Shown here piece by piece: positions 7,056 through 64,000 of a DNA stretch of 64,000 nucleotides. Origin of the DNA: a virus. The stretch is from the IMG/VR virus record IMGVR_UViG_3300045988_182490. One strand, 5' to 3'. The position numbers and the translations under genes are program-made. How positions within the stretch are numbered: position 1 is the first letter of the stretch; the number at the start of each line of letters is the position of its first letter. Below the pieces are notes generated by a model that ran no database searches, was not told the DNA's origin, and saw only the letters and a program-made list of their open reading frames with translations.

Positions 7056-7059
7056 CTAT

Positions 7060-7133
7060 GCCTCCGTAGTCTAATGGTTAGTGACGTCAGCTTCTCACGC
7101 TGAAGATGCGGGGTTCAAGTCCCCTCGGAGGTT
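7060..7133 (+). tRNA. tRNA-Glu (CUC)
   Basis: stem TCAGC/GCTGA, loop TTCTCAC, GGGGTTCAAGTCCCC. Confidence 0.6.
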
Positions 7134-7138
7134 CTTAT

Positions 7139-7212
7139 ACGGGCGTAGTCTAATTGGACAAAACAACGGTCTTCTAAATCGTACCTTGCGGGTTCGAGTC
7201 CCGTCGTCCGTA
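7139..7212 (+). tRNA. tRNA-Arg (UCU)
   Basis: loop CTTCTAA, GCGGGTTCGAGTCCCGT, acceptor ACGGGCG/CGTCCGT. Confidence 0.7.
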
Positions 7213-7219
7213 GTATTAT

Positions 7220-7295
7220 GGCATCGTGGTCGAGTGGTCTAAGGCGCCTGTCTGCAAAACAGGTTTTACCGTGGGTTCGAATCCCACCGATGTCT
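7220..7295 (+). tRNA. tRNA-Cys (GCA)
   Basis: stem CCTGT/ACAGG, loop CTGCAAA, GTGGGTTCGAATCCCAC. Confidence 0.65.
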
Positions 7296-7443
7296 TTGCA
7301 TTTAAGCTGTGCGAAGCAGATTAGTCACCTGTTTCTATTCAGTGTATATGCAAAAAGCCCGTGCTAAACGGTATTTCAGTCGAAATTGACTAACGGCTGC
7401 GGTATTCGTGATAAACCTGCCAATCTGCGGGGCACGGGAGTCT

Positions 7444-7534
7444 GCCAGTGTGGCTCAATTGGTACAGCACCTGCTTCGAACACAGGCAAGCCGGCATTTA
7501 TGTCGACGTACAGGTTCAAGTCCTGTCACTGGCG
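7444..7534 (+). tRNA. tRNA-Ser (CGA)
   Basis: perfect acceptor GCCAGTG/CACTGGC, loop TTCGAAC, long variable arm, ACAGGTTCAAGTCCTGT. Confidence 0.65.
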
Positions 7535-7540
7535 TTTTTA

Positions 7541-7609
7541 GTCCATTAGCATAGCGGTTAATGCACTGGGCCTTGACCCGGGGACTGCGGTTCGAATCCG
7601 CAATGGGCC
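7541..7609 (+). tRNA. tRNA, possibly Gln (UUG); short
   Basis: TGCGGTTCGAATCCGCA T-arm, acceptor GTCCATT/AATGGGC, anticodon region CCTTGAC. Confidence 0.4.
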
Positions 7610-7621
7610 GTTTATATTTTT

Positions 7622-7713
7622 TGCCGTGGTGGCTCAAATGGTAAAGCAGCGGATTGCTAATCCGCCATCTCGGAGTAAAATCCGGTTTCAGGGTTCGAGT
7701 CCCTGTCACGGCG
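7622..7713 (+). tRNA. tRNA-Ser (GCU)
   Basis: stem GCGGA/TCCGC, loop TTGCTAA, long variable arm, CAGGGTTCGAGTCCCTG. Confidence 0.7.
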
Positions 7714-7718
7714 TTTAT

Positions 7719-7995: not shown

Positions 7996-10059
7996 ATGAC
8001 ATTAAAAGAAAAATTGGATCTTTGGGTAAAAATAACGGGTGTAAATCCAAGTGAAAAGAATAAAAAATATACGATCTATATGGATGGCCGTTTATCTGAT
8101 TATGACATTCAAAAGATGAATGAGCGGATTATGAATTCGTTAAAATACGATGAAACCGGATTATTTGCAGATACTTATCTAAAAATCTATCTTAAGAAAT
8201 TCATGAACGGAAAGAATGTTTCCTTCATGGAATTAATGGAAAATCCTGATCTCCAAGAGTATTTAAAGGATGTCAGAACATTATATGATTCCGTAAATAA
8301 TAGTAATGCAGAAGAAACAGTGCTGAATAATATGAAAGCAGCCATGGACTTTTATGATCTTCCGTCAGATAAATTAACATCGGAAGATGTTATGAGTGTT
8401 GTGTCGTCTGCTAAAAACTGCATGAACGGAAAATTGAAGTTGGATCAAATAACAAAGGGCTCATTTGCTGATGATGAGTTTAAAGGATCTCTTGATATCT
8501 ATATGTACAAGAGTATTGGCGATGTTATCCGTTTTGCTGCAAAAGGAGACATCTCAGGTATTTCGATGTGCTACATTTGTGATGATAAGAATCTTGAACA
8601 GAGTTTTTTTGCTTTTATAATCAGAAATGGAGAAAATCTGTATATATTGTCTGACCGTCCTATTTATAAACATCCACTACAGGCTAAAATGTCCAGGTGT
8701 CCGGGGAGAGATATGAGTGAAAGAATAGAAGGTAATTATTTCCCTTATAATTCTATCTCCGGTATCGATGTTAGTGATTTATGGGGCAGCGGAAGATATG
8801 GTGTATCCAAAAATGATGACAATATGGCTCCTGCTGTAAATAACGACTGCGTAAGAACAAAAATCGGAACGTTTGCTTCTTTAAATCAGGATGAAGCATT
8901 CTGGGCTATCTATATGTTTTCTTTGATTAAAGATCGGTTTTATAAGGAACATATTGAATTAGAGGATCTTTCTTTCTGTGAAGCAAATATTATTTATGAC
9001 AGGCTGGAAGAAAATGAAAAGAATGAGATTGCATTAAGAACAACTATTCCATATATTGTAGTGAAACCTGTTGAAAATCCAAAGAATATTGAAATGGAAT
9101 ACGGTAGAAAATCGGAACACCTGTATGATTATCTCATTGATAGATATGTTAATAAAGTAGACACAAATGTTTTTAATCTTATCAAACAAAGAGATAAGAC
9201 GTTACCTATGCTTACCGATAATAAATCAACTTGCTTCCGTCAGTATGAAACACTTGATTTAAGTTCGATGCGGACAGAAAAAGAACTCATTTATGATCAG
9301 CAATGGTTAGCAAGATATAACATGGCCGTATCCATAGGCGGTATGTTGAATTCTGATTTCGATAAAAATAAAAACCGAGTTATATCTGAAATGCTATCTA
9401 TGATTAGAAATTCGGCTGGGTATATTGTTAATCTCATTTTAACCAAAAAGTTTGATGGAAAAATCGATTCTTTTGAATATGCAGCCAAAAATATATCATA
9501 CAGAGATATTACTTTAGGTAAGGAATACGATGACGATTATAAGAGCAAATATCGTTGTTTCTTTACAGGGAAAAATCCAGCCGTCATCATTTCCTTTAAC
9601 GTTAAAACAGCCGAGGAACTTGCAACTCTGTGTGGAGTCGATATTAAAAGCATCCCGATAGAGCTGCAACATTATCACAAGAATAAACGTTGTTGCGGAA
9701 ATAGCATTCTTGATAACCTCGATCCATTGGATTGGGCTTTATCTGATCCATATGATGATCTTTCATTCTATTTTCATATAATTTTAAGTGGTAATGAAAT
9801 GTTAAGGCGCCAGGCAATAGCGGGTGTACAGCAGAATGCTTTTTGGAAGGAACAGATACCGTTATGTTATTTTGAAAAATATAGTTTTGATAAAGATCGT
9901 AGCTATATGAATAAAAAGGAGGCTAATTTAGAAAAAGAAAAATATTATAATACATGTCTTGGAATATTCAGAGGCTATGACGAAAACTATAAAGATAAAC
10001 TGCTAAAGAAATGCGAAAAATGTAAATATCACAGAGTCTCTAAAAATATGGAAGCATAA
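7996..10059 (+). CDS. large hypothetical protein
   Basis: 687 aa; AAGGAG RBS; no motif recognised. Confidence 0.6.
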   Translation: MTLKEKLDLWVKITGVNPSEKNKKYTIYMDGRLSDYDIQKMNERIMNSLKYDETGLFADTYLKIYLKKFMNGKNVSFMELMENPDLQEYLKDVRTLYDSVNNSNAEETVLNNMKAAMDFYDLPSDKLTSEDVMSVVSSAKNCMNGKLKLDQITKGSFADDEFKGSLDIYMYKSIGDVIRFAAKGDISGISMCYICDDKNLEQSFFAFIIRNGENLYILSDRPIYKHPLQAKMSRCPGRDMSERIEGNYFPYNSISGIDVSDLWGSGRYGVSKNDDNMAPAVNNDCVRTKIGTFASLNQDEAFWAIYMFSLIKDRFYKEHIELEDLSFCEANIIYDRLEENEKNEIALRTTIPYIVVKPVENPKNIEMEYGRKSEHLYDYLIDRYVNKVDTNVFNLIKQRDKTLPMLTDNKSTCFRQYETLDLSSMRTEKELIYDQQWLARYNMAVSIGGMLNSDFDKNKNRVISEMLSMIRNSAGYIVNLILTKKFDGKIDSFEYAAKNISYRDITLGKEYDDDYKSKYRCFFTGKNPAVIISFNVKTAEELATLCGVDIKSIPIELQHYHKNKRCCGNSILDNLDPLDWALSDPYDDLSFYFHIILSGNEMLRRQAIAGVQQNAFWKEQIPLCYFEKYSFDKDRSYMNKKEANLEKEKYYNTCLGIFRGYDENYKDKLLKKCEKCKYHRVSKNMEA

Positions 10060-20270: not shown

Positions 20271-21848
20271 ATGAACGACAATTTTATAAATTTTTATCCT
20301 ACTCCGAAAGAGTTATTCAGAGATATTACTTCTAAACTTCATTGGTGGACGATCGATGGCATTCTGGAACCTTCTGCTGGCAAGGGAAATATGGTTGATT
20401 ACATACTGGAAGAGAGATTAGATCGAAATATTGATTGCATTGAAATTAATCCAGAATTACAAGCAACATTAAAAGGAAAGGGATATTCGGTTATCCATGA
20501 TGATTTTCTTACTTTCATTCCGAAGTACCATTATGATCTGATTCTCATGAATCCTCCGTTTGATATGGGAGCAGCACATCTTCTGAAAGCCATAGATATT
20601 CAAAAAAATGGTGGAAAAATCATTTGTATCCTGAATGCTGAAACTATTCGCAATCCGTATACGAATGAAAGAAAAGTGCTTGTACAAAAATTGGAGGATC
20701 TGAATGCAAAAATTGAATACCGAGAAGACGAATTTACATCTGCCGAACGAACAACAAATGTAGAAATCGCAGTTGTTTATATTGATATTCCTGAGAAAAA
20801 TGTAGCATCTGTTATTTTTGAGAATCTGAAACAAAAGTATTATACTGATCAGAAAGTAAAAGAAGTTACCGACATCGTAGATAACGATTATCTTTCCGCA
20901 GCCGTAACACGTTTTAATATTGAAGTGGATGCTGGCATTAAACTTATTCGTGAGTATAAAGCAATGAAACCGTACATTATGGAAACATTGAATAAAGATA
21001 ATGAATATGCTAAACCTACACTTTCCCTATATGTCGGAGATAAAGGCGATCTTTCGGAGATTTCTTATGTTCGTAAAGTACGAAGAAAATATTGGGAAGC
21101 CTTATTTAAAGATAAGCGCTTTATCGGTCCCATGACAGAATCCATGCGAACAGAATATAACTCTAAGGTTCGCAAATTAGAAAAGTATGACTTTAGTATT
21201 TCTAATATCAAGGAACTTCAAATTCAGATGTGCGGAAACTTGATCAAAGGAATCGAAGACACTATAATGTCTCTCTTTGATGAATTATCATATAAACACA
21301 GTTGGGCTGCTGAATTCGGGAATAATATTCATTATTATAACGGCTGGGCTACAAATAAAGCATGGTATGTTAATAACAAAGTAGTTCTCCCATCCTATGC
21401 ATGGAGCAAACTTTGGAATAAATTTGATTTTTCATATTCCGTTTCAGAAAAATTTGGAGATATAGAAAAAGCTTTTAATTATTTAGCCGGCTGCCCAGGT
21501 GCAGAAATTTCCATATATACAATTCTGCGTAACGCAGAACACTCTGGACAGACAAAAAATATTGAGTGTAAATATTTCACTTTAACATTTTATAAAAAAG
21601 GAACCGTGCATATTACATTCAAGGATCCGGATCTGGTAAAGAAGCTGAATATCTTTGCAGGAAAGAATAAAAATATGTTACCCCCTTCCTATGGAACGAA
21701 AGCGTATTCTGATATGACAACTGAAGAAAAAGCCGTTGTAGACGAGTTTGACGGTGGAGAAGAGGAGTATAATAAAATATATTCCAACCCAGAAAAGTAT
21801 TTAGTCCAGAATAAGTCAGACTTGCTTCGTTTAGAAGAAATAGCATAA
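20271..21848 (+). CDS. N6-adenine (or N4-cytosine) DNA methyltransferase, orphan
   Basis: 525 aa; motif I-like EPSAGKGNM and catalytic NPPF; no adjacent restriction enzyme. Confidence 0.7.
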   Translation: MNDNFINFYPTPKELFRDITSKLHWWTIDGILEPSAGKGNMVDYILEERLDRNIDCIEINPELQATLKGKGYSVIHDDFLTFIPKYHYDLILMNPPFDMGAAHLLKAIDIQKNGGKIICILNAETIRNPYTNERKVLVQKLEDLNAKIEYREDEFTSAERTTNVEIAVVYIDIPEKNVASVIFENLKQKYYTDQKVKEVTDIVDNDYLSAAVTRFNIEVDAGIKLIREYKAMKPYIMETLNKDNEYAKPTLSLYVGDKGDLSEISYVRKVRRKYWEALFKDKRFIGPMTESMRTEYNSKVRKLEKYDFSISNIKELQIQMCGNLIKGIEDTIMSLFDELSYKHSWAAEFGNNIHYYNGWATNKAWYVNNKVVLPSYAWSKLWNKFDFSYSVSEKFGDIEKAFNYLAGCPGAEISIYTILRNAEHSGQTKNIECKYFTLTFYKKGTVHITFKDPDLVKKLNIFAGKNKNMLPPSYGTKAYSDMTTEEKAVVDEFDGGEEEYNKIYSNPEKYLVQNKSDLLRLEEIA

Positions 21849-31210: not shown

Positions 31211-32845
31211 ATGAATGGAATTAACATTGGAGTAATCGTAGCAGTTGTAGCTGTTGTGGCGGTGCTTGGCATTTTGATGTCCGGGTATGTAAAGGCATCC
31301 CCGGATAAGGCGTACATCATTTCCGGTCTCAAAAAGGAACCTAAAGTACTTATTGGTCGTGCCGGTATTAAGATTCCCTTTTTAGAGAAAAAGGATGAAT
31401 TGATGCTAAGACAGATCAGTATCGATATTAAGACAAACGGATATATTCCCACCAAGGATTTTATCGGTGTAGATATTGATGCAGTAGCAAAGGTCAGAGT
31501 TTTGACCGCAAAAGATATTACCGTAAATAAAGAGGGAAATATTCTGCCTGGTTGTGATCCAAATAAGAGAGTTACCCATGAAATGGTACAGGCAGCGATG
31601 AAGAACTTCTTAAATATGAAGGAACAGCAGATTCGTGAAGCACTGACCGATTCCTTACAGGGTAATATGCGTGAGATTATCGGTACCCAGTGTTTAAAGG
31701 AGTTGTGTAACGATCGTAAGACCTTTGGTGACGAGGTACAGGCAAAAGCACAGAAAGATATGAATGCTCTGGGTATCTGGATCGAGTCCTGTAACATCCA
31801 GAAGATCGAGGATGAGAACAACCTGATCACTGCTTTGGGACAGGATAACATGTCCCAGATCCAGAAGGACGCTTCCGTAGCAAAGGCACAGGCAGACAGA
31901 GATGTGGCCATCGCCAGAGCACAGGCACAGAAGGATGCCAATGATGCACAGGTCATCGCAGAGACCGAGATCGCACAGAAGCAGACTGAGCTGGCGATCA
32001 AGAAGGCAGAACTGAAGAAAGAGTCCGATATCAAGAAGGCAGAAGCTGACGCAGCATATAAGATCCAGGAAGAGGAACAGCGTAAGACCGTGGAGATCAC
32101 CACAGCGAATGCGAACCTGGCCCGTCAGGAGAAGGAACTGGAATTAAAGGAGAGAGAAGTATCCATCAAGGAGAAAGCTCTGGAAGCTGAGGTCAAGAAG
32201 ACCGCAGAAGCAAACAAATACGCAGCACAGCAGAAGGCAGATGCCGAGCAGTATGAGAGACAGAAGAGAGCGGAGGCCGAACTCTTCGAGATCCAGAGAC
32301 AGGCAGAGGCAGAAAAGGCAAAATCCGAGGCAGAAAGATTCGCCAAGGAGCAGGCGGCAGAGGCAGTCAAGGCAGCAGGCCTGGCAGAGGCAGCAGCTGT
32401 AGCAGCCAAAGGTAAGGCGGAAGCAGAAGCCATTCAGGCAAAAGCAGAGGCAGAGGCAGCCGGTATTCTGAAGAAAGCGGAAGCTATGAAACAGTACGGC
32501 GATGCTGCAAGACAGCAGATGGAGCTGGATACTTTGAAAGTATACTTCGAACAGCTGCCTAAGATTGCAGAGGCAGTGGCAAAGGGCTACACCAATGTTG
32601 ACTCCATTAAGATGTTTGGTGGAAATACCAGCCAGCTTGCAGGGGATATTATGACCACCATTACACAGGTATCTGATGGTATTAAAGAATCTACCGGTAT
32701 TGATCCGACTGAAGCACTGAAAGGTGCTTTAAAAAAGAAGGACTCTAATGTAAAAACATCTGATCTTAAGGATGATTATACAGAAGTAACCACCTTATCA
32801 AACGCATCAACGGAAACCGATACAGATATGCTTTCTGAAGAATAA
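31211..32845 (+). CDS. flotillin-like SPFH/band-7 protein (FloT/YuaG-like)
   Basis: 544 aa; N-terminal TM, SPFH start PDKAYIISGL, long Ala/Glu-rich coiled coil (AEAEKAKSEAER...), FloT-like C-terminus. Confidence 0.85.
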   Translation: MNGINIGVIVAVVAVVAVLGILMSGYVKASPDKAYIISGLKKEPKVLIGRAGIKIPFLEKKDELMLRQISIDIKTNGYIPTKDFIGVDIDAVAKVRVLTAKDITVNKEGNILPGCDPNKRVTHEMVQAAMKNFLNMKEQQIREALTDSLQGNMREIIGTQCLKELCNDRKTFGDEVQAKAQKDMNALGIWIESCNIQKIEDENNLITALGQDNMSQIQKDASVAKAQADRDVAIARAQAQKDANDAQVIAETEIAQKQTELAIKKAELKKESDIKKAEADAAYKIQEEEQRKTVEITTANANLARQEKELELKEREVSIKEKALEAEVKKTAEANKYAAQQKADAEQYERQKRAEAELFEIQRQAEAEKAKSEAERFAKEQAAEAVKAAGLAEAAAVAAKGKAEAEAIQAKAEAEAAGILKKAEAMKQYGDAARQQMELDTLKVYFEQLPKIAEAVAKGYTNVDSIKMFGGNTSQLAGDIMTTITQVSDGIKESTGIDPTEALKGALKKKDSNVKTSDLKDDYTEVTTLSNASTETDTDMLSEE

Positions 32846-33240: not shown

Positions 33241-34569
33241 ATGAAGATCATTACTTCCTACAATGTACGTCTGAAAACAGAATACATTTCAGCCATGAAG
33301 CAGACCGTAATGCTTTATACAGATGCAGTCTGTTTCTATATGGATGTCATTCTGGAGGAGTGGAACACGTTTGCAGGCTTGAGCACCAATGAAGCCGTTC
33401 TGTGTGCCGAGAGGTTATCCCATGCCACCACAGCACATCCGGCTCCGAAGTATGACTTTGATGGACGATTTCCAAAGTTCCCATGTTACCTGCGCAGGGC
33501 TGCTATCAGTAGTGCATTTGGTAAATGCTGTGCTTACATCAGCAGTCTTGCTAACTGGGAAAAGCTGGATCCTGCAGTCAGAAAGAAAGCTCCCGGCAGG
33601 CCGCGTATTACCATGGAGATGCCGGCTTTCTACAAAGGAAACATGTTTGTGCGGACCGGTGACTATACCGCAAGACTGAAGTTATTTTACCGGAATGACT
33701 GGCAGTATGTGGACGTCGGCCTGCGTAAGTGTGATGTGGATTATTTATTACGACACTGTGGATCCCGGAAGGAATCCTCACCGGTGCTGCGGCATTGCCA
33801 CAAGGTATGGGAACTGTGCTTTTCTTATGAAGAGGACCGGATGCTCAATAAGACACCGGTTTCCGGCCAACGAATCCTTGCTGTGGATCTTGGCATCCAT
33901 AATCCCTGTACCTGCTGCGTTATGACTTCGGATGGTACTGTCCTGGGGCGGCATTTCCATAAAGCCCCGGTAGAAGAAGACTCTCTGAATCATAAACTCG
34001 GCAAGATCAGGAAGGCTCAGCGCCAAGGCAGTCAGCGCATACCTAAGAAATGGGCTTCCATCCATGGTTCGAATACCAGTATTTCCCGGAAGACTGCGGA
34101 TTTCATTATCAGCATGGCCGTACTCTATAACGTAGATGTCATCGTTATGGAGTATCTGGATACTTCAGGAAAGAAACACGGCTCCGGTAAGCAGCGTCTG
34201 CATATGTGGCGTAAGGCAGCCATCTGGAAGCAGACAGAGCTTCAGGCCCACAGACTCGGGATCCGTGTCAGCCGGGTATGTGCCTATAATACCTCAAGAC
34301 TGGCATTCGACGGATCCGGAAGTGTACTGCGCGGCCGGGAAGCAGATCTGGGTTCCTACAGTATCTGCCAGTTCCGGACCGGCAAGATATATAACTGTGA
34401 CCTGAATGCATCCTACAACATAGGAGCTAGATATTTCATAAGAGAACTCTTAAAACCTTTTTCTGAAAAGGAAAAGTTGCCCGTCCTGGCAAAAGTCCCG
34501 GACTGTGGTAAGAGAAGCACCTGCACCCTGGCTTCGCTCATTAGACTGAATGCGGTTCTGGCAGCGTAA
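33241..34569 (+). CDS. tnpB: TnpB (OrfB_IS605) RNA-guided nuclease
   Basis: 442 aa; RuvC-I LAVDLGIHN, RuvC-II VIVMEYLD, Zn-finger Cys cluster, RuvC-III CDLNASYNIG. Confidence 0.85.
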   Translation: MKIITSYNVRLKTEYISAMKQTVMLYTDAVCFYMDVILEEWNTFAGLSTNEAVLCAERLSHATTAHPAPKYDFDGRFPKFPCYLRRAAISSAFGKCCAYISSLANWEKLDPAVRKKAPGRPRITMEMPAFYKGNMFVRTGDYTARLKLFYRNDWQYVDVGLRKCDVDYLLRHCGSRKESSPVLRHCHKVWELCFSYEEDRMLNKTPVSGQRILAVDLGIHNPCTCCVMTSDGTVLGRHFHKAPVEEDSLNHKLGKIRKAQRQGSQRIPKKWASIHGSNTSISRKTADFIISMAVLYNVDVIVMEYLDTSGKKHGSGKQRLHMWRKAAIWKQTELQAHRLGIRVSRVCAYNTSRLAFDGSGSVLRGREADLGSYSICQFRTGKIYNCDLNASYNIGARYFIRELLKPFSEKEKLPVLAKVPDCGKRSTCTLASLIRLNAVLAA

Positions 34570-40371: not shown

Positions 40372-40432
40372 TATTTTGTCTTGTTTCATCTGTCATATTA
40401 ATTACATCAAAAAGATAAATGGAGGAAATAAT

Positions 40433-41431
40433 ATGAAAGAAACAACGAACATTTTGGAATTATTTGGAGGTGTAGGAGCTCCACGTAGAGCGTTGGAATT
40501 ATGTGGGCTGAACATCAAATCCATCGATTATGTTGAGATTCTTCCTTATGCCGTATTAGCTTATAACAATATTTTTGATATTAGCTATAAACCGCAGAAT
40601 ATCATAAACTGGAATATGGATGTTGATATTCTAATTCATGGATCTCCTTGCCAGGACTTTACAAAAGAAGGTAAAAATGACATTAATACCGGTCGCTCTA
40701 TCCTTTATAACCGGACACTTGAAATTATCGAAAAGGGATTACATAAGAGACCTCCGGTAGTCATCTGGGAAAATGTCCCGAATCTGGCTTCTCAGGGTAA
40801 AAAGGTATCTCATAAACACCATTTGGACCATTATATCGAAACAATGGAAGCTATGGGATATAAAAGCACATATGCTATTCTTGATGCAAGTAAATACGGG
40901 ATTCCACAGGCAAGAGAACGGTTATATGTCGTGAGCTTATTATCTGGAAATGAATTTGAATTTCCGGATGAAATACCCCTTAAATTTCATCTACGGGATT
41001 TCCTTGATAAAACAGTGAATCCAGCTGATTACCAGCTCTCTGATGCAGAAAAACAGCTTTTCTTTACGAATAATGGAAAACTATATGTAAAGGAAGCTAC
41101 AAAAATTGGATATAAGCTCGTGGAAGATGGAGATTGCATCAATGTAGCTTTTCCTAATTCCAAAACAAGACGCGGTAGAGTAGGAAAAGGTGTTGCCAAA
41201 ACACTTACTACAGCCCCTAGACAAGCTGTATATACAAATGGTGTCCTTCGGATGTTGACTGCAAAGGAATATTGGCGGCTTATGGGTTTTAAGGATCGTG
41301 ATTATGCAGCAATGAAAAAAGTTGGTTTGACTGATGCTCAGATCTGTCATCTGGCCGGTAATTCAATTTGTGTTCCGGTACTTCAACATATTTTTACAAA
41401 ACTTATTGCCATGGGTGAAATCGAAAGATAA
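40433..41431 (+). CDS. DNA (cytosine-5)-methyltransferase, orphan
   Basis: 332 aa; motif I LFGGVGA, motif IV PCQDFT, motif VI ENVPNL, motif [13 protein letters not shown]. Confidence 0.9.
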
Positions 41432-44319: not shown

Positions 44320-45101
44320 TCTATATTACAGGAGATATTCATGGAGATCCCACAAGATTTTCCAAAGAAGCGTTTCCAGAACAATCAAAAATGACAAAAG
44401 AGGATTACGTTATTGTCTGTGGAGATTTTGGACTCGTATGGGATCAAATGGAATCAAGAACAGAAGAATATTGGCTTAACTGGCTTCAGAATAAGCCGTT
44501 CACTACATTATTCGTGGATGGTAATCATGAAAATCATGATAGATTGGATGCTATGCCAGTATCTGAATGGAATGGAGGAAATGTTCACTTTGTAAGACCT
44601 AATGTTATTCATTTAATGCGAGGCCAGGTATTTACTCTTTGTGAAAAAACATTCTTTACGTTTGGAGGAGCATCTTCCCATGATATCCAGGATGGTATTT
44701 TGGATCCTGATAATTATCAGTACGGAATTAAAGATCCTCTATTCAAAGAAGATAAAAAGAAGTTAGATGATAGAAGAGCCATGTACCGTATCAAGAGAGT
44801 ATCCTGGTGGGAACGTGAGCTTCCTAGCGAACAGGAGATGTCTGAAGGAATCGAAAATCTTAAGAAATACGGAAATAAAGTGGACTATATTATTTCCCAT
44901 AGTCCGTGCACCAGTGATATGTTCCTAATGGGCGGTAAAGGCATTTACCAGCCGGATATTATTTCGAACTATCTGGAAGAAGTAAGAGCCACAACGGAGT
45001 ATAAGAAATGGTATTTTGGACATATGCATATCAATAAGCAGGTGTCTATGCAGGATATTTGCTTGTATGAGCAAATTTTATTTGTCCCTACTTGTCAATA
45101 A
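44316..45101 (+). CDS. calcineurin-like metallophosphoesterase
   Basis: 261 aa; GDIHGD, GDFGLVWD, GNHENHD motifs; stop codon lies within first bases of IscB element copy 1. Confidence 0.8.
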   Translation: MIYITGDIHGDPTRFSKEAFPEQSKMTKEDYVIVCGDFGLVWDQMESRTEEYWLNWLQNKPFTTLFVDGNHENHDRLDAMPVSEWNGGNVHFVRPNVIHLMRGQVFTLCEKTFFTFGGASSHDIQDGILDPDNYQYGIKDPLFKEDKKKLDDRRAMYRIKRVSWWERELPSEQEMSEGIENLKKYGNKVDYIISHSPCTSDMFLMGGKGIYQPDIISNYLEEVRATTEYKKWYFGHMHINKQVSMQDICLYEQILFVPTCQ

Positions 45102-45361
45102 CCCATCACTAAAGTGACGGGCTTGTAAAAGCCCGATATTGACTAGCCTAAGTGTTTCGAACACTACGTTACGAGAGAATATATAGTCACCTGCGGATGT
45201 AATACCTAGTCTGCAGCTCTGAGGTCCGTGATTAAACAGTCCTGTTGGATAGGGACAGTGTTGCGGATATCCAAAACCTCTCATTAACATTGGCGAAGGT
45301 ATCATTACAGAGGAATGACCTCTGATTTATGTGATTTGGTTCACAGAAAGGAGTGCCTGTT
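45100..45361 (+). ncRNA. putative omega RNA (IscB guide scaffold), copy 1
   Basis: about 260-nt non-coding, GC-enriched, hairpin-rich region between IS left end and iscB start, canonical omega-RNA position. Confidence 0.6.
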
Positions 45362-46633
45362 ATGGTATATGTTCTTAACATTGACGGACAGCCGCTTATG
45401 CCCACTGACAGGCATGGAAAGGTCCGGCATCTTTTGAAAGACGGCCGGGCGGAAGTAGTAAAGCGCTGTCCGTTTACCATACGACTGTTGTATGACAGCA
45501 CGCACTATACACAGGATATCGTATTAGGTGTGGATGCCGGCAGCAAACATATCGGTTTGTCGGCCACCACAGAAACAAAAGAACTCTATGCTTCCGATGT
45601 GGAGCTAAGAAATGACATTGTGGATCTGATTTCCACACGCAGACAGAACCGCCGGTCACGGCGTAATCGTAAGATTCGTTATCGGAAGGCTCGTTTTCAG
45701 AACAGGGTATCCGGAAAGAAAAACTGGTTGGCTCCCAGTATCCGGCAGAAAGTCGATACACATATGACCGTGGTATCCAGAGTATGCATGATACTTCCGG
45801 TTACAAAGATCATCGTGGAGACAGCTTCTTTTGATATCCAGAAGATCAAGGATCCGGATATCAGTGGTACTGGTTATCAGCAGGGAGAGCAGCTCGATTT
45901 CTGGAACGTCCGGGAGTATGTATTATCCCGGGATGGTCATACCTGCCAGTGCTGCAAAGGCAAATCCAAGGATCCGGTGCTCAATGTACATCATATCGAG
46001 AGCCGAAAGACTGGTGGCGATGCTCCCAATAACCTGATCACCTTATGTGAGACATGCCATAAGAGTTATCACTCAGGTGCGGTGCAGCTGCCGAAAGCCA
46101 TCCATCGTGGCATGAGATTCAAGGATGCTGCATTCATGGGAGTCATGCGATGGAATTTCTATAACAAACTGAAGGAAATCTATGAGCTACAGGGCATTGA
46201 GATACGTATGACATTTGGGTATCTCACAAAGAATACCCGTATCCGTCATCATCTGCCAAAGGAGCATTACATAGATGCCAGGTGCATCAGCGGTCATCCG
46301 GAAGCAATACCCAGCAACGAAGTTTTCTATCAGAAGAAGGTTCGCTGCCATAACCGCCAGATACATAAGAACACTATCCTTAAAGGTGGTATCCGAAAAC
46401 GAAATCAGGCCGGCTATCTGGTAAAAGGCTTCCGGCTGTTCGATAAAGTAGCTTACAAAGGCAGAGAGTACTTCATTTTTGGACGCAGGCAAAGTGGATT
46501 CTTCGATTTGCGGAATCTGTCCGGATGCAAAGTAAACAAAGGCAGTCTCAGTTACCGGAAGATCGGATTTCTGGAACCGAGACAATACTATTTATGTGAA
46601 AGGAGAGTAATGGACACCCAGGGCTGTGCTTAA
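45362..46633 (+). CDS. iscB: IscB RNA-guided nuclease (PLMP-RuvC-BH-HNH-RuvC)
   Basis: 423 aa; PLMP (GQPLMP), RuvC-I GVDAGSKHIGLS, Arg-rich bridge helix, RuvC-II IIVETASFD, HNH CQCCKG...HHI...NLITLCETCH, RuvC-III EHYIDARC. Confidence 0.9.
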   Translation: MVYVLNIDGQPLMPTDRHGKVRHLLKDGRAEVVKRCPFTIRLLYDSTHYTQDIVLGVDAGSKHIGLSATTETKELYASDVELRNDIVDLISTRRQNRRSRRNRKIRYRKARFQNRVSGKKNWLAPSIRQKVDTHMTVVSRVCMILPVTKIIVETASFDIQKIKDPDISGTGYQQGEQLDFWNVREYVLSRDGHTCQCCKGKSKDPVLNVHHIESRKTGGDAPNNLITLCETCHKSYHSGAVQLPKAIHRGMRFKDAAFMGVMRWNFYNKLKEIYELQGIEIRMTFGYLTKNTRIRHHLPKEHYIDARCISGHPEAIPSNEVFYQKKVRCHNRQIHKNTILKGGIRKRNQAGYLVKGFRLFDKVAYKGREYFIFGRRQSGFFDLRNLSGCKVNKGSLSYRKIGFLEPRQYYLCERRVMDTQGCA

Positions 46634-55581: not shown

Positions 55582-56526
55582 ATGAATATCGTATTACTTG
55601 TTATTGGTGTTGTAGCTGCAATTTTGGGAATTATAATTAGAATTTTGACGAAGGATACTGGTTATGTAAAGCTCGGCAAACATTATGCACATCCTATGAT
55701 TATCGGTGGCCTTATACTACTGGTATTTAGTCAGTCGTTTGCAATTATTCCAACTGGATATACCGGAGTACGAATTACATTCGGACAGATTGATAATCGA
55801 ACGGTTCAGAATGGATTTAACTGGAAGATTCCTTTTGTGCAGTCTATTAATCAGGTCAACAATAAACAGCAGGATATTTCCTATACCGGCCAGGTTTGGA
55901 GTGAGACTGCTGAGCGTACCGTTTTATACTATGAAGGAATAACTGTCACATACACAATTAACCCCGAAAAGAGCGCCTGGATCTATGCGAACGTATCAGA
56001 TTATAAGAAAAATCTGATTTCAGATAATCTTGTTGCATCCGCAATCAAGAGTAGCAGTAAGGAACTGAATTCTACAGATGCAACCAATCGTGGAATCATT
56101 GAACCTATTGCACAGGAAAAGATTCAGGAAGCTTTAGATCAAAAGTATGGTCCCGATGTGGTATTTATCAATAAGGTAGTTATCGCAAATACTGACTTTG
56201 AAGAAAGCTATAATCAGGCCATTGCAGATAAACAGACTGCGCAGCTTGCGTATGAAAAGCAGCAGATTGAAAATAAACGGCAGATTGAAGCGGCGGAAGC
56301 AGATGCTCAGGTTAAAACGACGCAGGCAAAAGCTGAAGCTGACGCAGCTGTAATTAAGGCGCAGGGCGAGGCGGATGCAAATAAACTTTTGAATGATTCC
56401 ATTACGGATAAGATTTTGAGACAGCAGTATTATGAAAAGTGGAACGGACAGCTACCTAATGTTATTACCGGTGATTCCAGTGACATTATTATGGATATTG
56501 GAAAAACAACATTGGGAGAAGAATAA
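55582..56526 (+). CDS. SPFH/band-7 (prohibitin/HflC-K-like) membrane protein
   Basis: 314 aa; two N-terminal TM, TGYTGVRITFGQI...NWKIPFVQSI SPFH core, Ala/Gln-rich coiled coil. Confidence 0.8.
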   Translation: MNIVLLVIGVVAAILGIIIRILTKDTGYVKLGKHYAHPMIIGGLILLVFSQSFAIIPTGYTGVRITFGQIDNRTVQNGFNWKIPFVQSINQVNNKQQDISYTGQVWSETAERTVLYYEGITVTYTINPEKSAWIYANVSDYKKNLISDNLVASAIKSSSKELNSTDATNRGIIEPIAQEKIQEALDQKYGPDVVFINKVVIANTDFEESYNQAIADKQTAQLAYEKQQIENKRQIEAAEADAQVKTTQAKAEADAAVIKAQGEADANKLLNDSITDKILRQQYYEKWNGQLPNVITGDSSDIIMDIGKTTLGEE

Positions 56527-58236: not shown

Positions 58237-58354
58237 TTTAGGCAGCTTTGGCTGCCTTTTTTATATAAAACCGTGAAAAAGCAGACTGTATAATTGGTAT
58301 AGGATTCCATAAAAATAATGTCATATTAATTATATATAATATAAGTCAATAACC

Positions 58355-58612
58355 CATCACTAAAGTGACGGGTTTGTAAAAGCCCGATATTGACTAGCCT
58401 AAGTGTTTCGAACACTACGTTACGAGAGAATATATAGTCACCTGCGGATGTAATACCTAGTCTGCAGCTCTGAGGTCCGTGATTAAACAGTCCTGTTGGA
58501 TAGGGACAGTGTTGCGGATATCCAAAACCTCTCATTAACATTGGCGAAGGTATCATTACAGAGGAATGACCTCTGATTTATGTGATTTGGTTCACAGAAA
58601 GGAGTGCCTGTT
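58355..58612 (+). ncRNA. putative omega RNA, copy 2
   Basis: same sequence as copy 1 scaffold. Confidence 0.6.
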
Positions 58613-59884
58613 ATGGTATATGTTCTTAACATTGACGGACAGCCGCTTATGCCCACTGACAGGCATGGAAAGGTCCGGCATCTTTTGAAGGACGGCCGGG
58701 CGGAAGTAGTAAAGTGCTGTCCGTTTACCATACGACTGTTGTATGACAGCACGCACTATACGCAGGATATCGTATTAGGCGTGGATGCCGGCAGCAAACA
58801 TATCGGTTTGTCGGGCACCACGGAAACAAAAGAACTCTATGCTTCCGATGTAGAGCTCAGAAATGACATTGTGGATCTTATTTCCACACGCAGACAGAAC
58901 CGCAGGTTCCGTCGTAATCGTAAGACACGGTACCGGAAAGCCCGATTCCTGAACCGGTTATCCGATAAGAAGGACTGGTTGGCTCCCAGTATCCGGCAGA
59001 AAGTCGATACCCACATGACCGTGGTATCCAGAGTATGTAAGATACTTCCGGTCACAAAGATCATCGTGGAGACAGCATCCTTTGATATCCAGAAGATCAA
59101 GGATCCGGATATCAGTGGTACTGGTTATCAACATGGTGAGCAGCTCGATTTCTGGAACGTCCGGGAGTATGTATTATTCCGGGATGGACATACCTGCCAG
59201 TGCTGCAAAGGCAAATCCAAGGATCCGGTACTCAATGTACATCATATCGAGAGCCGTAAGACTGGCGGCGATGCTCCCAATAACCTGATCACCTTATGTG
59301 AGACCTGTCATAAGGGTTATCACTCAGGTGCGGTGCAGCTGCCGAAAGCCATCCATCGTGGCATGAGATTCAAGGATGCTGCATTCATGGGAGTCATGCG
59401 ATGGAATTTCTATAACAAACTGAAGGAAATCTATGAGCTACAGGGCATTGAGATACGTATGACATTTGGGTATCTCACAAAGAATACCCGTATCCGTCAT
59501 CATCTGCCAAAGGAGCATTACATAGATGCCAGGTGCATCAGCGGTCATCCGGAAGCAATACCCAGCAACGAAGTTTTCTATCAGAAGAAGGTTCGCTGCC
59601 ATAACCGCCAGATACATAAGAACACTATCCTTAAAGGTGGTATCCGAAAACGAAATCAGGCCGGCTATCTGGTAAAAGGCTTCCGGCTGTTCGATAAAGT
59701 AGCTTACAAAGGCAGAGAGTACTTCATTTTTGGACGCAGGCAAAGTGGATTCTTCGATTTGCGGAATCTGTCCGGATGCAAAGTAAACAAAGGCAGTCTC
59801 AGTTACCGGAAGATCGGATTTCTGGAACCTAGACAATACTATTTATGTGAAAGGAGAGTAATGGACACCCAGGGCTATGCTTAA
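58613..59884 (+). CDS. iscB: IscB RNA-guided nuclease, copy 2
   Basis: 423 aa, all IscB motifs intact. Confidence 0.9.
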   Translation: MVYVLNIDGQPLMPTDRHGKVRHLLKDGRAEVVKCCPFTIRLLYDSTHYTQDIVLGVDAGSKHIGLSGTTETKELYASDVELRNDIVDLISTRRQNRRFRRNRKTRYRKARFLNRLSDKKDWLAPSIRQKVDTHMTVVSRVCKILPVTKIIVETASFDIQKIKDPDISGTGYQHGEQLDFWNVREYVLFRDGHTCQCCKGKSKDPVLNVHHIESRKTGGDAPNNLITLCETCHKGYHSGAVQLPKAIHRGMRFKDAAFMGVMRWNFYNKLKEIYELQGIEIRMTFGYLTKNTRIRHHLPKEHYIDARCISGHPEAIPSNEVFYQKKVRCHNRQIHKNTILKGGIRKRNQAGYLVKGFRLFDKVAYKGREYFIFGRRQSGFFDLRNLSGCKVNKGSLSYRKIGFLEPRQYYLCERRVMDTQGYA

Positions 59885-60284
59885 CCGCACTCCTCCCACG
59901 ACTAAAGTCACGGGTGTCCGTGCTAAGCGAATTTATGAATATAGCCACGTATCAAACAACGCCAGAACTGGAAAGAAAAACTCAATTCATCAAACAATAA
60001 GTAACAAGTAAATAAGATTGATTATATTGTTTTCTGCAACCAAAACTTTTATACACTTTTTCTGACATAATATAGTTGAAGAGAAAACTGGAGAAACTTT
60101 TTTACGGATTTAAGATAAAAAATCCGTTTGACCTTATAGATTTTACTTTTATAACTCCGGAATGTGACCGGAGATAACATAAACCAACCTTTTTCTTAAG
60201 ATACAGTCCAACCGGATGGACAAAATGTACTGCTTCATCCGGTTACGGAAGCAGTTACAATAATTAATAAAGAGGGAAAATGCA

Positions 60285-60659
60285 ATGAATAGAAAAGACA
60301 AAAACGAAATGGCCAACAAAAACGTAAAAGACTTCCACGTTCCGAAGGCAGAGAACATGCTTAAAGAAACAGAACCGAATACACTTATTAAATGGGTGGA
60401 CTTAATTACTAAAGCTAAGGATAGCGGAAACACATATTGTTACTTATGTTCTGATGACGGTAGAGTAACAAGAAATGCCGTTATAAAAATCCTCGAAGCA
60501 GGATATGATCTTAAATACTCATTCTTTAAGGATGAAATGACCGGACAGTCTCTTTTTATAAAGGCATTCTGGCAAGAAGGTTGCAGTGGCAGACTTTATG
60601 ATGAACGGTCAAAAGAATATGTAGACGTTGACACAATGTTTTATAGAATCATGGCATAA
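60285..60659 (+). CDS. hypothetical protein
   Basis: 124 aa. Confidence 0.5.
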   Translation: MNRKDKNEMANKNVKDFHVPKAENMLKETEPNTLIKWVDLITKAKDSGNTYCYLCSDDGRVTRNAVIKILEAGYDLKYSFFKDEMTGQSLFIKAFWQEGCSGRLYDERSKEYVDVDTMFYRIMA

Positions 60660-60761
60660 TTGTTGAGTAATTCCTTCCAAACTATATAGTGCTCCCGCCG
60701 AGCGAAACATTTCTTACTGTTTCCGGCGGGGAAACAGTATGGCCAATATGGAGGGCAAAAT

Positions 60762-61112
60762 ATGAAAAACTTAAATGAAACCAATCTGTTAAAAGCACTG
60801 AATACCCAGCCGAGACTTGCTTTTGAATTAATCAAAGCATTGGGAAAAGCTTCGGAAGATCTGATGATTTATGAAAGAATCAACAGCAGACCTGATCGCG
60901 AACTGGCGCGTCAGAGTAAACTCGGAGAAGCTATCAAATTCTCCAATAAAGTCGTAGGAGTCGTGTCTCGTATGGAACGCGAGACAGGTTGGACCATTAT
61001 AAAAAAATATCTGCATAATGACAGCGAAAAACTGGAATTCATGCAGGATCTGGACGATTTCTTTAACGAGCTCTATGCAGAGCAGGAAGAAAAAACAGTT
61101 AACAATGTTTAA
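60762..61112 (+). CDS. hypothetical protein
   Basis: 116 aa. Confidence 0.5.
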   Translation: MKNLNETNLLKALNTQPRLAFELIKALGKASEDLMIYERINSRPDRELARQSKLGEAIKFSNKVVGVVSRMERETGWTIIKKYLHNDSEKLEFMQDLDDFFNELYAEQEEKTVNNV

Positions 61113-61152
61113 AATAATAGCCCCGAGGATGTTTATCCTTAGGGCTATTTTC

Positions 61153-61453
61153 TTATAATTCAGAAATAATCTTGCAAATCTTATCCTGTAATTCTCCAGC
61201 TTCCTTAGCATAAGCAATTCCGGAAAGAAATTCCTTATTCTGTGATGCCTCTTCAATTGTTTCCGGAGTTTTTCTCATGGAAGCTCTTGCAAGATTTGCA
61301 TATCCTTCTGTAGAAACTGCCCGGTACAGGTTAATCAGTTCTTTTAATTTCGGGTGGTTCTCATATTCCTCAAGAACCTTATTAAATTCTTCATTCTCCA
61401 TAAAAATCAGATCATCGTAATTTCTTTTCTTTCTGAATTCTTTGATTTCTGCC
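61153..61453 (-). CDS. hypothetical protein (minus strand)
   Basis: about 100 aa from internal Met with AAGAGG RBS. Confidence 0.4.
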
Positions 61454-61597
61454 ATTTTCTTTTTCCTCTTTATCTTTGCTGTATTCTGTTTTCTATAGAT
61501 AATATAACACGATTTGGAATGAACGGCAAATTTCTGCACAGAAATTTCAATTTATTTTTCAGTCATATTAACTATAACAATCGATAAAAGGAGAAAA

Positions 61598-61789
61598 TTC
61601 ACGAAACAGAAGATAGCAAATAAATTATATCATGTTACTACAAAGGAATCCGCCGATCATATCCTTAACGAAGGCTTGTTTCCACAAATAGGTGATAATT
61701 CAAGAAAAGCAGGAGAAGAGGATCCAGTTGTTTTCCTTTGTAATCGATTTCCGAGGAAGAAAAAGAAACAGTCCGAAAGAAAGCTCTGA
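61598..61789 (+). pseudogene. DarT-like (DUF4433 ssDNA ADP-ribosyltransferase) N-terminal remnant, no canonical start codon, truncated at about 60 codons
   Basis: frame encodes KLYHVTTKESADHILNEGLFP ... VVFLCNRFP resembling DarT N-terminus (LYHFTHIDNL..IL..GLL ... FYFCPRSP); RBS present but no ATG/GTG/TTG. Confidence 0.4.
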
Positions 61790-61873
61790 AGGATGTAACC
61801 CCGGCATTTTTGTCATTATATTATATGACTGAATTTGACGATTTTTCTTATTGTAACGGAAGGAGAAATGTTT

Positions 61874-62347
61874 ATGCAGCTAAAAGAAGAAAAAAGAGAT
61901 CTATTTTCAGTTAATAACGAAAAAGATATGTGGTATGTACAGTGTATCTCGGCAGATTTTGCCTGTGGTAAGGGAATTGCTCTGGAGTTCAATAAAAGAG
62001 GAGATGTTAAAAATCTCTTAATGAAAAATTATAAAAAGAATATGTGGAACGGCTATGGATATTGTCTTCCAACTTGTTCTTTACCGGAGACAAATGAAGA
62101 TAGAGAATATTTCAAAGTATTCAATCTGGTAACAAAGGCTAAATATTATATGAAACCATCTGAAAGAACCATACGAACTGCATTAATGTCATTACATGAC
62201 ATGGTTAAAGCATATGGAATTAAAAAAATGGCCATGCCACAGATTGGGTGTGGGTTGGACCGAATGGATTGGAATAATGTTAGAGAAATAATCCAACACA
62301 TTTTCCAGGATATTCAAGATCTTGAAATTTTAGTATGTAGAAAATAG
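61874..62347 (+). CDS. TARG1/DarG-type macrodomain protein (ADP-ribose glycohydrolase family)
   Basis: 157 aa; YVQCISADFACGKGIALEFNKR and MAMPQIGCGLDRMDWNNVREIIQHIF align closely with human TARG1 [21 protein letters not shown] and [26 protein letters not shown]. Confidence 0.75.
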   Translation: MQLKEEKRDLFSVNNEKDMWYVQCISADFACGKGIALEFNKRGDVKNLLMKNYKKNMWNGYGYCLPTCSLPETNEDREYFKVFNLVTKAKYYMKPSERTIRTALMSLHDMVKAYGIKKMAMPQIGCGLDRMDWNNVREIIQHIFQDIQDLEILVCRK

Positions 62348-62441
62348 AAGAGTTGCAGCATTGCTGCAACTTTTCTTTATATGCATCTTTTCTTACATAA
62401 TAAAGATATAAAGATAATCGGAGAAGAAAGCGAGGTATTTT

Positions 62442-62777
62442 ATGATGAATGCAAAAGAAATTGCAAATATTTGGAAAGAAGTTGTTAAGATTTACAATAA
62501 TACAAGAGAAAACAATCTGCCTGAAAAAACTATGGAAGAAATAATTCGTAAGTTTGGTTTAGAGAAAACAAAAGAAGTGTTTGCAACAGTAGCAGCTATC
62601 AAAAAACATGACGGTAGAATTTATGGAAAGAACAGAGAGTATATGAACAGTATTCCTGTTGATTCAGAGATTGTAGAATGGAGAAGCGGAAATCCCGTAG
62701 TATATGCAGGACTTGATGATATTCATACGACGCATATCAACCAGCTGATTACCGAATTAAGGAAACTGGATAACTAA
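62442..62777 (+). CDS. hypothetical protein
   Basis: 111 aa. Confidence 0.5.
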   Translation: MMNAKEIANIWKEVVKIYNNTRENNLPEKTMEEIIRKFGLEKTKEVFATVAAIKKHDGRIYGKNREYMNSIPVDSEIVEWRSGNPVVYAGLDDIHTTHINQLITELRKLDN

Positions 62778-62809
62778 ATACATCATTCATTTAGAAGGAA
62801 GGAAATAAT

Positions 62810-63100
62810 ATGTTAGGATATAAGATTTATTTTAATGGAGATAAATTTGTAGCAGATAATGCTGCAACAGAAGTTCAGACGATGCCATGCGATTCAACTG
62901 TTTCATGGATGGCTAATAAGGCATCTGCGGATGATGCCGTAGAAAAGCATAATGCAAATGATTTAAAGGATGTTAAAAAATGTAAGGAATGCGGCGAATA
63001 CTTCTGGCAGACAGACGAAGAAAGAACCTGGTTTGCTGATAGGAATATGAAAGCACCTTGCAGATGTTATTCTTGCAGAAAAAAGAAAAATAAACACTGA
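62810..63100 (+). CDS. hypothetical Cys-rich protein
   Basis: 96 aa; CKECGEY...CRCYSCRKK zinc-ribbon-like. Confidence 0.5.
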   Translation: MLGYKIYFNGDKFVADNAATEVQTMPCDSTVSWMANKASADDAVEKHNANDLKDVKKCKECGEYFWQTDEERTWFADRNMKAPCRCYSCRKKKNKH

Positions 63101-63135
63101 AATGGATATTTCATAAGGAAAATGGAGGAACAGAT

Positions 63136-63315
63136 ATGGAATTTACAGAAATGGATGAAATAAGGGTAAGAACCTATGGTGGTGCTATTGGCACTATTGA
63201 AAAAGTTGTATATGAAATGGTAGATGGAAAAGAAACAGATAATGTATATTGCTATGAAATGGAAATCAATGGTAAACATGGAGTCATAGTCTATCCAGAC
63301 GAGATTGACGAATAG
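63136..63315 (+). CDS. hypothetical small protein
   Basis: 59 aa; GGAGG RBS. Confidence 0.4.
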   Translation: MEFTEMDEIRVRTYGGAIGTIEKVVYEMVDGKETDNVYCYEMEINGKHGVIVYPDEIDE

Positions 63316-63371
63316 GGCTGATCATAGAACGGCAAATGCTCGTTTCCTATGGATTAGAAAGGAGAAATGGA

Positions 63372-63518
63372 ATGAGTATTATTGAAGAGAATGCAAAAAC
63401 AATTAAGGACTGGTTAAAACATTTAGATTTTGAACACGAACATCCAGGCTATGGCAAAGATGTTTATAAAAAGTTAGACGAAATTATTACAGAGGCACAG
63501 AAGATAAAAGAGGACTAA
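63372..63518 (+). CDS. hypothetical small protein
   Basis: 48 aa; AAAGGAG RBS. Confidence 0.4.
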   Translation: MSIIEENAKTIKDWLKHLDFEHEHPGYGKDVYKKLDEIITEAQKIKED

Positions 63519-63553
63519 ATGCGTGTTTCAACAGTTTAGAAAGAGGTAAAAGT

Positions 63554-63814
63554 ATGAGAAAATTACTGAAAAAAATATCCGATTTAAAAAATGCATATAG
63601 AGTTCTTGAAATAATGGACAAAGCAGGATGCGATATTGAACAAGTATCAAATATGAATGGATATTATAAACTCAAACCCAAATGGTATGTATCAGAAAGA
63701 GATGCAAAAGACCTACAAAAGATAGTTTTACATAAAAAAAATTATTATGGTAATCATCACATGTTTTGGAAAATTTGGTTTAAAAATATTCGTGACGGAT
63801 ATAGATATTTATAA
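63554..63814 (+). CDS. hypothetical protein
   Basis: 86 aa. Confidence 0.45.
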   Translation: MRKLLKKISDLKNAYRVLEIMDKAGCDIEQVSNMNGYYKLKPKWYVSERDAKDLQKIVLHKKNYYGNHHMFWKIWFKNIRDGYRYL

Positions 63815-63851
63815 TTAAATTCGCAGTTCTTTAAAAGATTGGAGGAAATAT

Positions 63852-63986
63852 ATGTTTGAATATAATGGATATCATTTTGAATCAGTAAGAAAACTAAAAG
63901 AATCAGAAAAGAAGGATATATGCACATTCTCTAAACATATCAGAAGCGATAGAGAACTTGGGATATGTGATTATGATGTTGATTGA
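63852..63986 (+). CDS. hypothetical small protein
   Basis: 44 aa; GGAGG RBS. Confidence 0.35.
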   Translation: MFEYNGYHFESVRKLKESEKKDICTFSKHIRSDRELGICDYDVD

Positions 63987-64000
63987 AAAAAACATGATTA

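Follow-up and report, generated by a model that had tools for sequence, protein, structure and literature searches.

Does the DNA described here hold a DarTG toxin-antitoxin system that lost its toxin and kept the antidote as a weapon against DarTG defence? The stretch, 64,000 nucleotides of a virus (IMG/VR record IMGVR_UViG_3300045988_182490; called the window below, at its full length), contains an intact macrodomain gene and, directly upstream on the same strand, a short open frame without a start codon. The first-pass annotation took that frame for the N-terminus of DarT. We find that its description of the sequence was essentially correct, but its interpretation as a DarT remnant within a decayed toxin-antitoxin system is not supported. 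The reading that we favour, and consider reasonably probable, is a unit in a cargo slot made up of a dead transferase other than DarT and an orphan TARG1-like eraser that serves counter-defence.

The window gene encodes a complete macrodomain of the TARG1/DarG class with the catalytic Lys and Asp kept, so that this part of the first-pass annotation, including the motifs it quoted, was borne out. The open reading frame (ORF) runs from ATG 61874 to a stop at 62345–62347 and is complete at 157 aa; homologues begin at the position matching this ATG in the homologue alignment, and an alternative ATG at 61868 would leave just 2 nt to the AAGGAG. The protein matches Pfam Macro (PF01661) at 25.4 bits against a gathering cut-off of 22, and phrog_335 of PHROGs at 5.7e-20. 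Its top PDB sequence match is human TARG1/OARD1 (E = 2.4e-14), and the next is the Mycobacterium tuberculosis DarG macrodomain (5M3I, E = 2e-6). The ten PDB sequence matches at E ≤ 10 comprise TARG1, DarG, a Thermosipho DarTG macrodomain and, twice and at chance level, a cobalamin methyltransferase; MacroD- or YmdB-type enzymes, to which the gene might have belonged instead, are absent from these matches even at that threshold. DarG models also match the protein (PADLOC, 1.2e-15; NCBIfam, 1.6e-14), in the macrodomain part of the models only: the NCBIfam match covers positions 26–145 of 338 and reaches 53.9 bits against an equivalog cut-off of 250. The C-terminal domain with which DarG neutralises DarT, expected in a protein of about 330 aa, is not present in the 157-aa protein, and the window macrodomain is therefore not a DarG.

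Structure and conservation agree with this assignment. An AlphaFold model of the protein (predicted local distance difference test score, 88.2) retrieves TARG1 first in Foldseek (E = 2.9e-12, about 30% identity), then a second group formed by the Thermus aquaticus and M. tuberculosis DarG macrodomains (3e-9, 17–19% identity), and then other macrodomains such as TTHA0132; all of the matches are macrodomains. In the HMMER alignment to 4J5R, LVTK and GCGLD of the window protein lie over ITK and GCGLD of TARG1. The catalytic residues within these motifs are Lys84 and Asp125 in TARG1 (K80 being the DarG equivalent of the Lys); both have conserved equivalents here, K88 being invariant and D129 nearly invariant among 20 aligned homologues. 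Compared with the copy at a related locus, L003, in which 142 of 154 residues are identical, the gene has a ratio of nonsynonymous to synonymous change (pN/pS) of 0.165 and is thus under purifying selection. Homologues number 796 at E ≤ 1e-5 and are mainly stand-alone proteins of 144–150 aa from Clostridia. In a further relative, L006, the TARG1-like gene is followed about 4.4 kb downstream by a second macrodomain gene of another type (9389–9895; Pfam Macro, 168 aa), so that a single element of this kind may bear two or more erasers of ADP-ribose.

The upstream frame is an inactivated gene: its ATG start has become ACG, and its C-terminal half, with the nearly invariant Glu of its family, is gone. 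The translation reads TKQKIANKLYHVTT...VVFLCNRFPRKKKKQSERKL and in full TKQKIANKLYHVTTKESADHILNEGLFPQIGDNSRKAGEEDPVVFLCNRFPRKKKKQSERKL. As the first-pass annotation had noted, the frame stands behind AAAGGAG and has no start; it ends after 62 codons, close to the 60 or so given there. No ATG, GTG or TTG occurs in it ahead of the conserved LYHVTT. Family homology spans about 61625–61747, and the tail, RFPRKKKKQSERKL, is unrelated sequence. Against a hidden Markov model (HMM) of the parent family described below, the remnant scores E = 2.7e-13 (an E-value from a small local database) over profile positions 2–44 of 104. The missing C-terminal half of the transferase, with the nearly invariant W53 and E85, was not found in the window in any frame, and the window holds no second intact copy of the transferase. 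Since relatives carry ATG at 61601–61603 and the frame matches the family HMM, the remnant is more than a chance frame.

Relatives of the remnant place these losses in order. Used as query against 5.8 billion proteins, the remnant retrieved five near-identical ones, four of which (P0001 and P0002 included) begin with MKQKIANKLYHVTT, while P0003 begins with MNQKIPNKLYHVTT. Locus L004 retains the ATG of an otherwise equal 62-codon ORF, and L003 has an 82-codon version in which a family-wide invariant Gly has been replaced (EGL to TRL). The alleles P0004 and P0005 change frame after residues 36 and 30, through either real decay or assembly errors. In all of the versions, those of all three close relatives included, the family match is confined to the first ~45 positions, so the truncation is older than the loss of the start codon in the window. 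The pN/pS of the remnant is 0.50, against 0.165 for the macrodomain; coming from just 14 substitutions, the figure is suggestive only. Rescue by recoding or read-through was considered and rejected: read-through of the TGA would meet a TAA after just two more codons, and the homology ends no more than about 120 nt short of the macrodomain gene.

What the remnant derives from is a small protein with an ADP-ribosyltransferase fold, of which DarT is a structural cousin from a different family. By tblastn against cultured phages, about 40 residues of the remnant are 58–63% identical to the N-terminal end of a hypothetical protein, 105 aa long, that Bacillus phages of the Herelleviridae encode (Goe24_00100, KKP_4048). 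A family profile, built from the few retrievable members, matched at least 1509 clusters (at 50% identity) among 1.84 billion representatives at E ≤ 1e-3. Stand-alone proteins of 100–125 aa make up most of them; in some, the family forms one domain of a very large polyvalent protein, in the company of ART-PolyVal, GNAT and Acb1-type 2H phosphoesterase domains. Alignment A4 holds 84 members with a domain of ~100–105 aa, in which the His of YHxT, W53 and a Glu at position 85 are nearly invariant. Examples from Herelleviridae and other phages are found in that alignment, at loci L001, L002 and L010–L017, and in proteins P0132, P0137 and P0199. No Pfam or NCBIfam model covers the family. The recurring sequence matches are weak and fall at the start of the KptA/Tpt1 NAD lobe, over about 22 N-terminal residues with the motif LYHxT..IL.EGL.P (E = 0.27 in PDB; E = 0.008–0.3 in NCBIfam), and polyvalent proteins contain sub-threshold matches to PARP, PTS_2-RNA and DUF3990.

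A confident AlphaFold model of the family shows an ADP-ribosyltransferase fold, with DarT one structural neighbour among several. The best structural matches, with score and identity, are Pertussis-like ArtA (10.0, 11%), Tpt1 (9.2, 29%), CC0527 (9.0, 12%), Escherichia coli DarT1 (8.5, 23%), Thermosipho DarTG (8.2, 19%) and M. tuberculosis DarT (8.0, 19%); the solved DarT chains among them have 208–221 residues, about twice the length of the family. Phage proteins of ~100 aa with a like fold are auto-annotated variously in BFVD as RNA 2′-phosphotransferase, DarT, PARP or ADP-ribosyltransferase. Full-length members of the family gave no DUF4433/DarT match in Pfam (E ≤ 10; E ≤ 0.01) or NCBIfam. 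The remnant itself gave no match in Pfam, NCBIfam or PADLOC at E ≤ 10 and only noise in PHROGs; the first-pass annotation had staked its reading on the DUF4433 profile, to which the upstream frame shows no similarity at this threshold. Its proposal of a DarT-like N-terminus thus holds at the level of the ADP-ribosyltransferase superfamily, by fold, and fails for DarT itself. The family, a large and unannotated ~100-aa set in phages and polyvalent proteins, is the more useful by-product of this analysis and its most interesting lead, and would be a reasonable target for biochemistry.

Whether transferase and macrodomain are linked was examined from both sides. We compared 10 loci with an intact small transferase, namely two GenBank Bacillus phages (1–2.5 kb flanks) and eight IMG/VR contigs (about 4 kb on each side) that came from a 10-sequence subset of the family alignment. 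A TARG1-type macrodomain lies near the transferase in none of them, and the neighbours are diverse. On the other side stand 80 Clostridia loci of the macrodomain (L018–L097; ±5 kb where the contig allowed), collected with an alignment as query; a single-protein query had given no confirmed loci in viral or genome contigs. The transferase HMM gave one weak match in these 80 loci, 3 kb away from the macrodomain. DUF4433 is absent among the 25 of 74 neighbour families listed for them, so an intact darT at homologous loci, for which the first-pass annotation had suggested looking, did not come to light there; nor is DUF4433 among the ORF families listed for the window (25 of 30 in one scan). The most frequent of the same-strand immediate neighbours (n = 104) are a hisH-type glutamine amidotransferase (10), Imm1 (7), flavin mononucleotide (FMN) reductase (5) and Imm51 (3). 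The presence of Imm1 and Imm51 beside chromosomal TARG1-like macrodomains is a hint of immunity to ADP-ribosylating interbacterial toxins. At cultured-phage macrodomain loci the transferase was found in none of three (Fusobacterium FNU3, Bacillus phage G and Lactobacillus LpeD).

Closer relatives show that the macrodomain also occurs in this position by itself. At the syntenic loci of P0014, the macrodomain of which is ~60% identical, a 116-aa gene, the divergent 100-aa gene and the intergenic DNA are kept, and the start of the macrodomain coincides exactly with that of the remnant in the window. At L005, the ribosome-binding site equivalent to 61587–61593 serves the macrodomain gene directly. 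The pair of transferase and macrodomain recurs in L003, where the transferase is dead too. The proposed origin from a decayed toxin-antitoxin system is thus unsupported: the parent family is not DarT, the DarG C-terminal domain is missing, and the two genes are not linked at the other loci surveyed above.

Table 1. Features of the remnant/macrodomain unit, in order along the window.
Feature	Position	Strand	Basis
Perfect 9-bp inverted repeat AAATTTCTG-ca-CAGAAATTT, operator-like	61528–61547		Repeat search; kept in L005 (alignment A8)
Shine-Dalgarno AAAGGAG of the former transferase gene	61587–61593	+	Sequence; 7 nt ahead of the mutated start; kept in L003 and L004
ACG where the ancestral ATG start stood	61601–61603	+	ATG in L003 and L004 (DNA alignment A1)
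Pseudogene; 62 codons remain of a gene for a ~105-aa protein with an ADP-ribosyltransferase fold	61601–61789	+	Translation, tblastn, family HMM
Shine-Dalgarno AAGGAG of the macrodomain gene	61860–61865	+	Sequence; 8 nt to ATG 61874
Intact gene (157 aa) for a stand-alone TARG1-like macrodomain, a predicted ADP-ribosyl hydrolase	61874–62347	+	Sequence, profile, structure-model and selection evidence
Terminator-like GC-rich 9-bp hairpin, then + strand T-run TTTTCTTT	62351–62371		Right after the macrodomain stop; scan reported - strand, tail read from sequence

The inverted repeat in Table 1 lies between the divergent 100-aa gene (61153–61455, - strand), which encodes an uncharacterised protein, and the remnant/macrodomain unit. 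Its probable role is that of an operator, and L005 retains the repeat though the macrodomain downstream is just ~60% identical. The promoter box that the first-pass annotation placed upstream of the remnant was not recovered, since a sigma-70 consensus scan found no + strand site there at the thresholds used; the region is nonetheless conserved. Rfam gave no match in or beside the locus.

The slot that holds the unit is recombinationally active. In the near-identical relative L004 (2080–4582), the remnant is followed there by a macrodomain truncated after ACGKGI and by other, unrelated small genes, beyond which lie a Tn916-type Xis, a tyrosine integrase and host ybeY; the Xis–integrase–ybeY end marks the integration end of the element. 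The window itself carries an array of 33 tRNA genes (3552–7714, + strand) for nearly all amino acids, with one tRNA left unassigned by ARAGORN (7539–7611, two-base anticodon). Such an array is typical of large or jumbo phages and is the best hint to the type of element. We take the element to be an integrative one of gut Clostridia and probably a large temperate phage, and the suggestion that the macrodomain is carried on a mobile element is sustained by the cargo slot, the relative with Xis and integrase, and the tRNA array. Window DNA from 60200 to 64000 had no match when compared with phages in distant mode. Elsewhere in the window are two IscB elements (45094–46633 and 58345–59884, both + strand), each with a HEARO/omega RNA (RF02033, 140–142 bits) directly upstream of a 426-aa ORF with RRXRR and HNH domains, and a TnpB-like ORF (33241–34569) with a weak Cas12f1-like TNB match. 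ORFs at 20271–21848, 40376–41431, 31211–32845 and 55582–56526 encode a DUF4942-type methyltransferase, an orphan C-5 cytosine methyltransferase and two SPFH/flotillin-like proteins. LemA/TPM, SLT, Bro-N, DUF3849 and LPD28 proteins are also found.

How, then, did a dead transferase and a living eraser come to be neighbours? A DarTG system in which darT was inactivated and a DarG-type antidote kept as an anti-DarTG factor would account for the class of the macrodomain and for the order of the genes, transferase then macrodomain on one strand as in darT-darG, and one phage protein of ~98 aa with a like fold is auto-annotated 'DarT' in BFVD. This explanation is nevertheless very improbable. DUF4433/DarT profiles match neither the fragment nor its intact relatives; family members are about half as long as DarT chains of known structure; the macrodomain protein is missing the C-terminal domain of DarG and falls far under the DarG equivalog cut-off; intact phage transferases have no TARG1-type macrodomain beside them at the 10 loci compared; and homologues of the macrodomain, whether in genomes or in phages, mostly stand alone. 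The image of a decaying DarTG caught in the act of turning into an anti-DarTG gene, which made the finding look special, does not hold. A former writer/eraser cassette without DarT is also doubtful, though less so. It could have joined an ADP-ribosyltransferase effector to an eraser that protected its own bearer, or have been a KptA-like/2H/Macro set for the clean-up of RNA ends and ADP-ribose-1″-phosphate, with the transferase decaying later. The shared strand, the single promoter region, the gap of 84 nt between the remnant stop codon and the macrodomain ATG and the recurrence of the pair in L003 fit such a cassette. Its RNA-repair version gains from the sole sequence matches of the family being to the KptA/Tpt1 NAD lobe and from Tpt1 being the second structural match, at 29% identity. 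Further points in its favour are the fusion of the transferase domain to an Acb1-type 2H phosphoesterase in P0132, an ORF with 2H-like HxT/S motifs (recognised by eye) about 0.4 kb upstream of the transferase in L012, the 33-tRNA array, and the cooperation of KptA with domains of the 2H and Macro types that PMC9503650 describes for the repair of RNA in phages. Against the cassette stand the confinement of the pairing to one lineage, in which the transferase is always dead, and the lack of co-occurrence in the 10 + 80 + 3 other loci. The family also lacks the KptA N-terminal RNA-binding lobe and retains its nearly invariant Glu, a residue that KptA-type enzymes are not known to have; nor are TARG1-class macrodomains the known ADP-ribose-1″-phosphate phosphatases, which counts against the KptA/2H/Macro version. 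A more specific proposal, that the ~105-aa family is a widespread, uncharacterised phage effector, that it formed a new writer/eraser cassette with the TARG1-like macrodomain here, and that the eraser outlived the writer and was re-used for counter-defence, is a little less likely again.

The macrodomain may instead be host-type cargo, either for housekeeping, in the clean-up of O-acetyl-ADP-ribose or ADP-ribose, or for immunity to interbacterial ADP-ribosyltransferase toxins. The large clostridial family of short stand-alone homologues, its hisH-type amidotransferase, Imm1, FMN reductase and Imm51 neighbours in the 80 genomes, and the title of the TARG1 PDB entry, O-acetyl-ADP-ribose deacetylase 1, speak for it. 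We regard it as unlikely, if less so than any of the explanations above: the gene sits in the cargo slot of a mobile element amid orphan methyltransferases and other accessory genes, and homologues occur in lytic phages, for which such housekeeping brings no gain. The toxin-immunity version overlaps the counter-defence reading, with the same chemistry directed at another attacker.

Under the counter-defence reading, a mobile element of gut Clostridia would hold the locus in a variable cargo slot as a single transcription unit, ordered as a conserved intergenic region with palindrome and ribosome-binding site, the dead transferase, the macrodomain with its own ribosome-binding site, and the terminator hairpin. 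Most simply, the small transferase and macrodomain genes would have become neighbours in one lineage, behind a conserved, regulated promoter, after which the transferase decayed; its remnant would then be a second cargo gene, independently acquired and now lost, and not the former toxin partner of the macrodomain. By analogy with TARG1 and DarG, the macrodomain is predicted to strip ADP-ribose from macromolecules, linked to thymidine on single-stranded DNA or to Glu/Asp on protein, and might so protect both element and host when they are attacked by ADP-ribosylation; a counter-defence role for this hydrolysis is plausible. The leading candidate for the attacker would be a DarT2-type defence, as for AdfM (discussed below), with ADP-ribosyltransferase toxins from other bacteria as the second possibility.

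Several observations weigh against this reading. The macrodomain is dispensable, since it has been lost in the relative L004, and its family is not dedicated to counter-defence, since many chromosomal homologues adjoin housekeeping genes such as hisH. The protein is nearer to TARG1 (~30% identity) than to DarG (17–19%), and its substrate might be DNA, protein or a small molecule. The scanned ORFs of the window did not include any capsid, terminase or conjugation gene, and the tight adjacency of remnant and macrodomain could still reflect a former functional pair. If the counter-defence reading is true, it would extend orphan-eraser counter-defence to mobile elements of gut Clostridia, beyond T4-like phages and the jumbo phages of Pseudomonas and Erwinia, with the eraser role filled by a TARG1-like rather than a DarG-like enzyme. 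The idea itself is no longer novel, as orphan erasers of phages that act against DarTG have already been published.

Both genes of the unit can be compared with known systems. KptA/Tpt1 resembles the parent family of the remnant in its NAD-binding lobe, over matches of ~22 residues that are not significant, and has in addition the N-terminal RNA-binding lobe that the family lacks. DarT (DUF4433) shares the ADP-ribosyltransferase fold with the family; it differs in profile and size, in being paired with DarG, and in ranking structurally under ArtA, Tpt1 and CC0527. For the macrodomain, the closest known system is human TARG1/OARD1 (C6orf130; 4J5R, 4J5S, 2L8R), like the window protein a single domain of ~150 aa with its Lys in 'TK' and its Asp in 'GCGLD'. 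The window protein differs in being bacterial or phage-borne, and it has a 12-residue insertion (the PTCSLPETNEDREYF region) that is missing from its closest homologues. DarG of DarTG2 (5M31, 5M3E, 5M3I) belongs to the same macrodomain class and forms the second-best structural group, at the lower identity given above; unlike it, the window protein has no C-terminal DarT-binding domain and no adjacent darT.

Phage-encoded countermeasures to DarTG supply a precedent, in AdfM an experimental one, for counter-defence by an orphan eraser. AdfM, a DarG2-like macrodomain of chimalliviruses, removes the ADP-ribose that DarT2 places on DNA and counters DarTG2 (Cell Rep 2026, PMC13309987). AdfN is a NADAR-type orphan antitoxin that counters DarTG1 (Nat Commun 2025, PMC11825919), and AdfB is an antitoxin mimic encoded by ICP1 (mBio 2024, PMC11481870). 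By tblastn, the window protein has a weak link to macrodomains of Erwinia jumbo phages (32% identity, C-terminal half); PhiKZ-type AdfM was not detected with it at E ≤ 1e-3, and further homologues occur in lytic Fusobacterium, Lactobacillus and Bacillus phages. Compared with AdfM, the window protein is nearer to TARG1 and has no nucleus-targeting context. What it shares with AdfM, AdfN and AdfB is the concept of an orphan antitoxin-type eraser that is carried by a mobile element and has no toxin partner.

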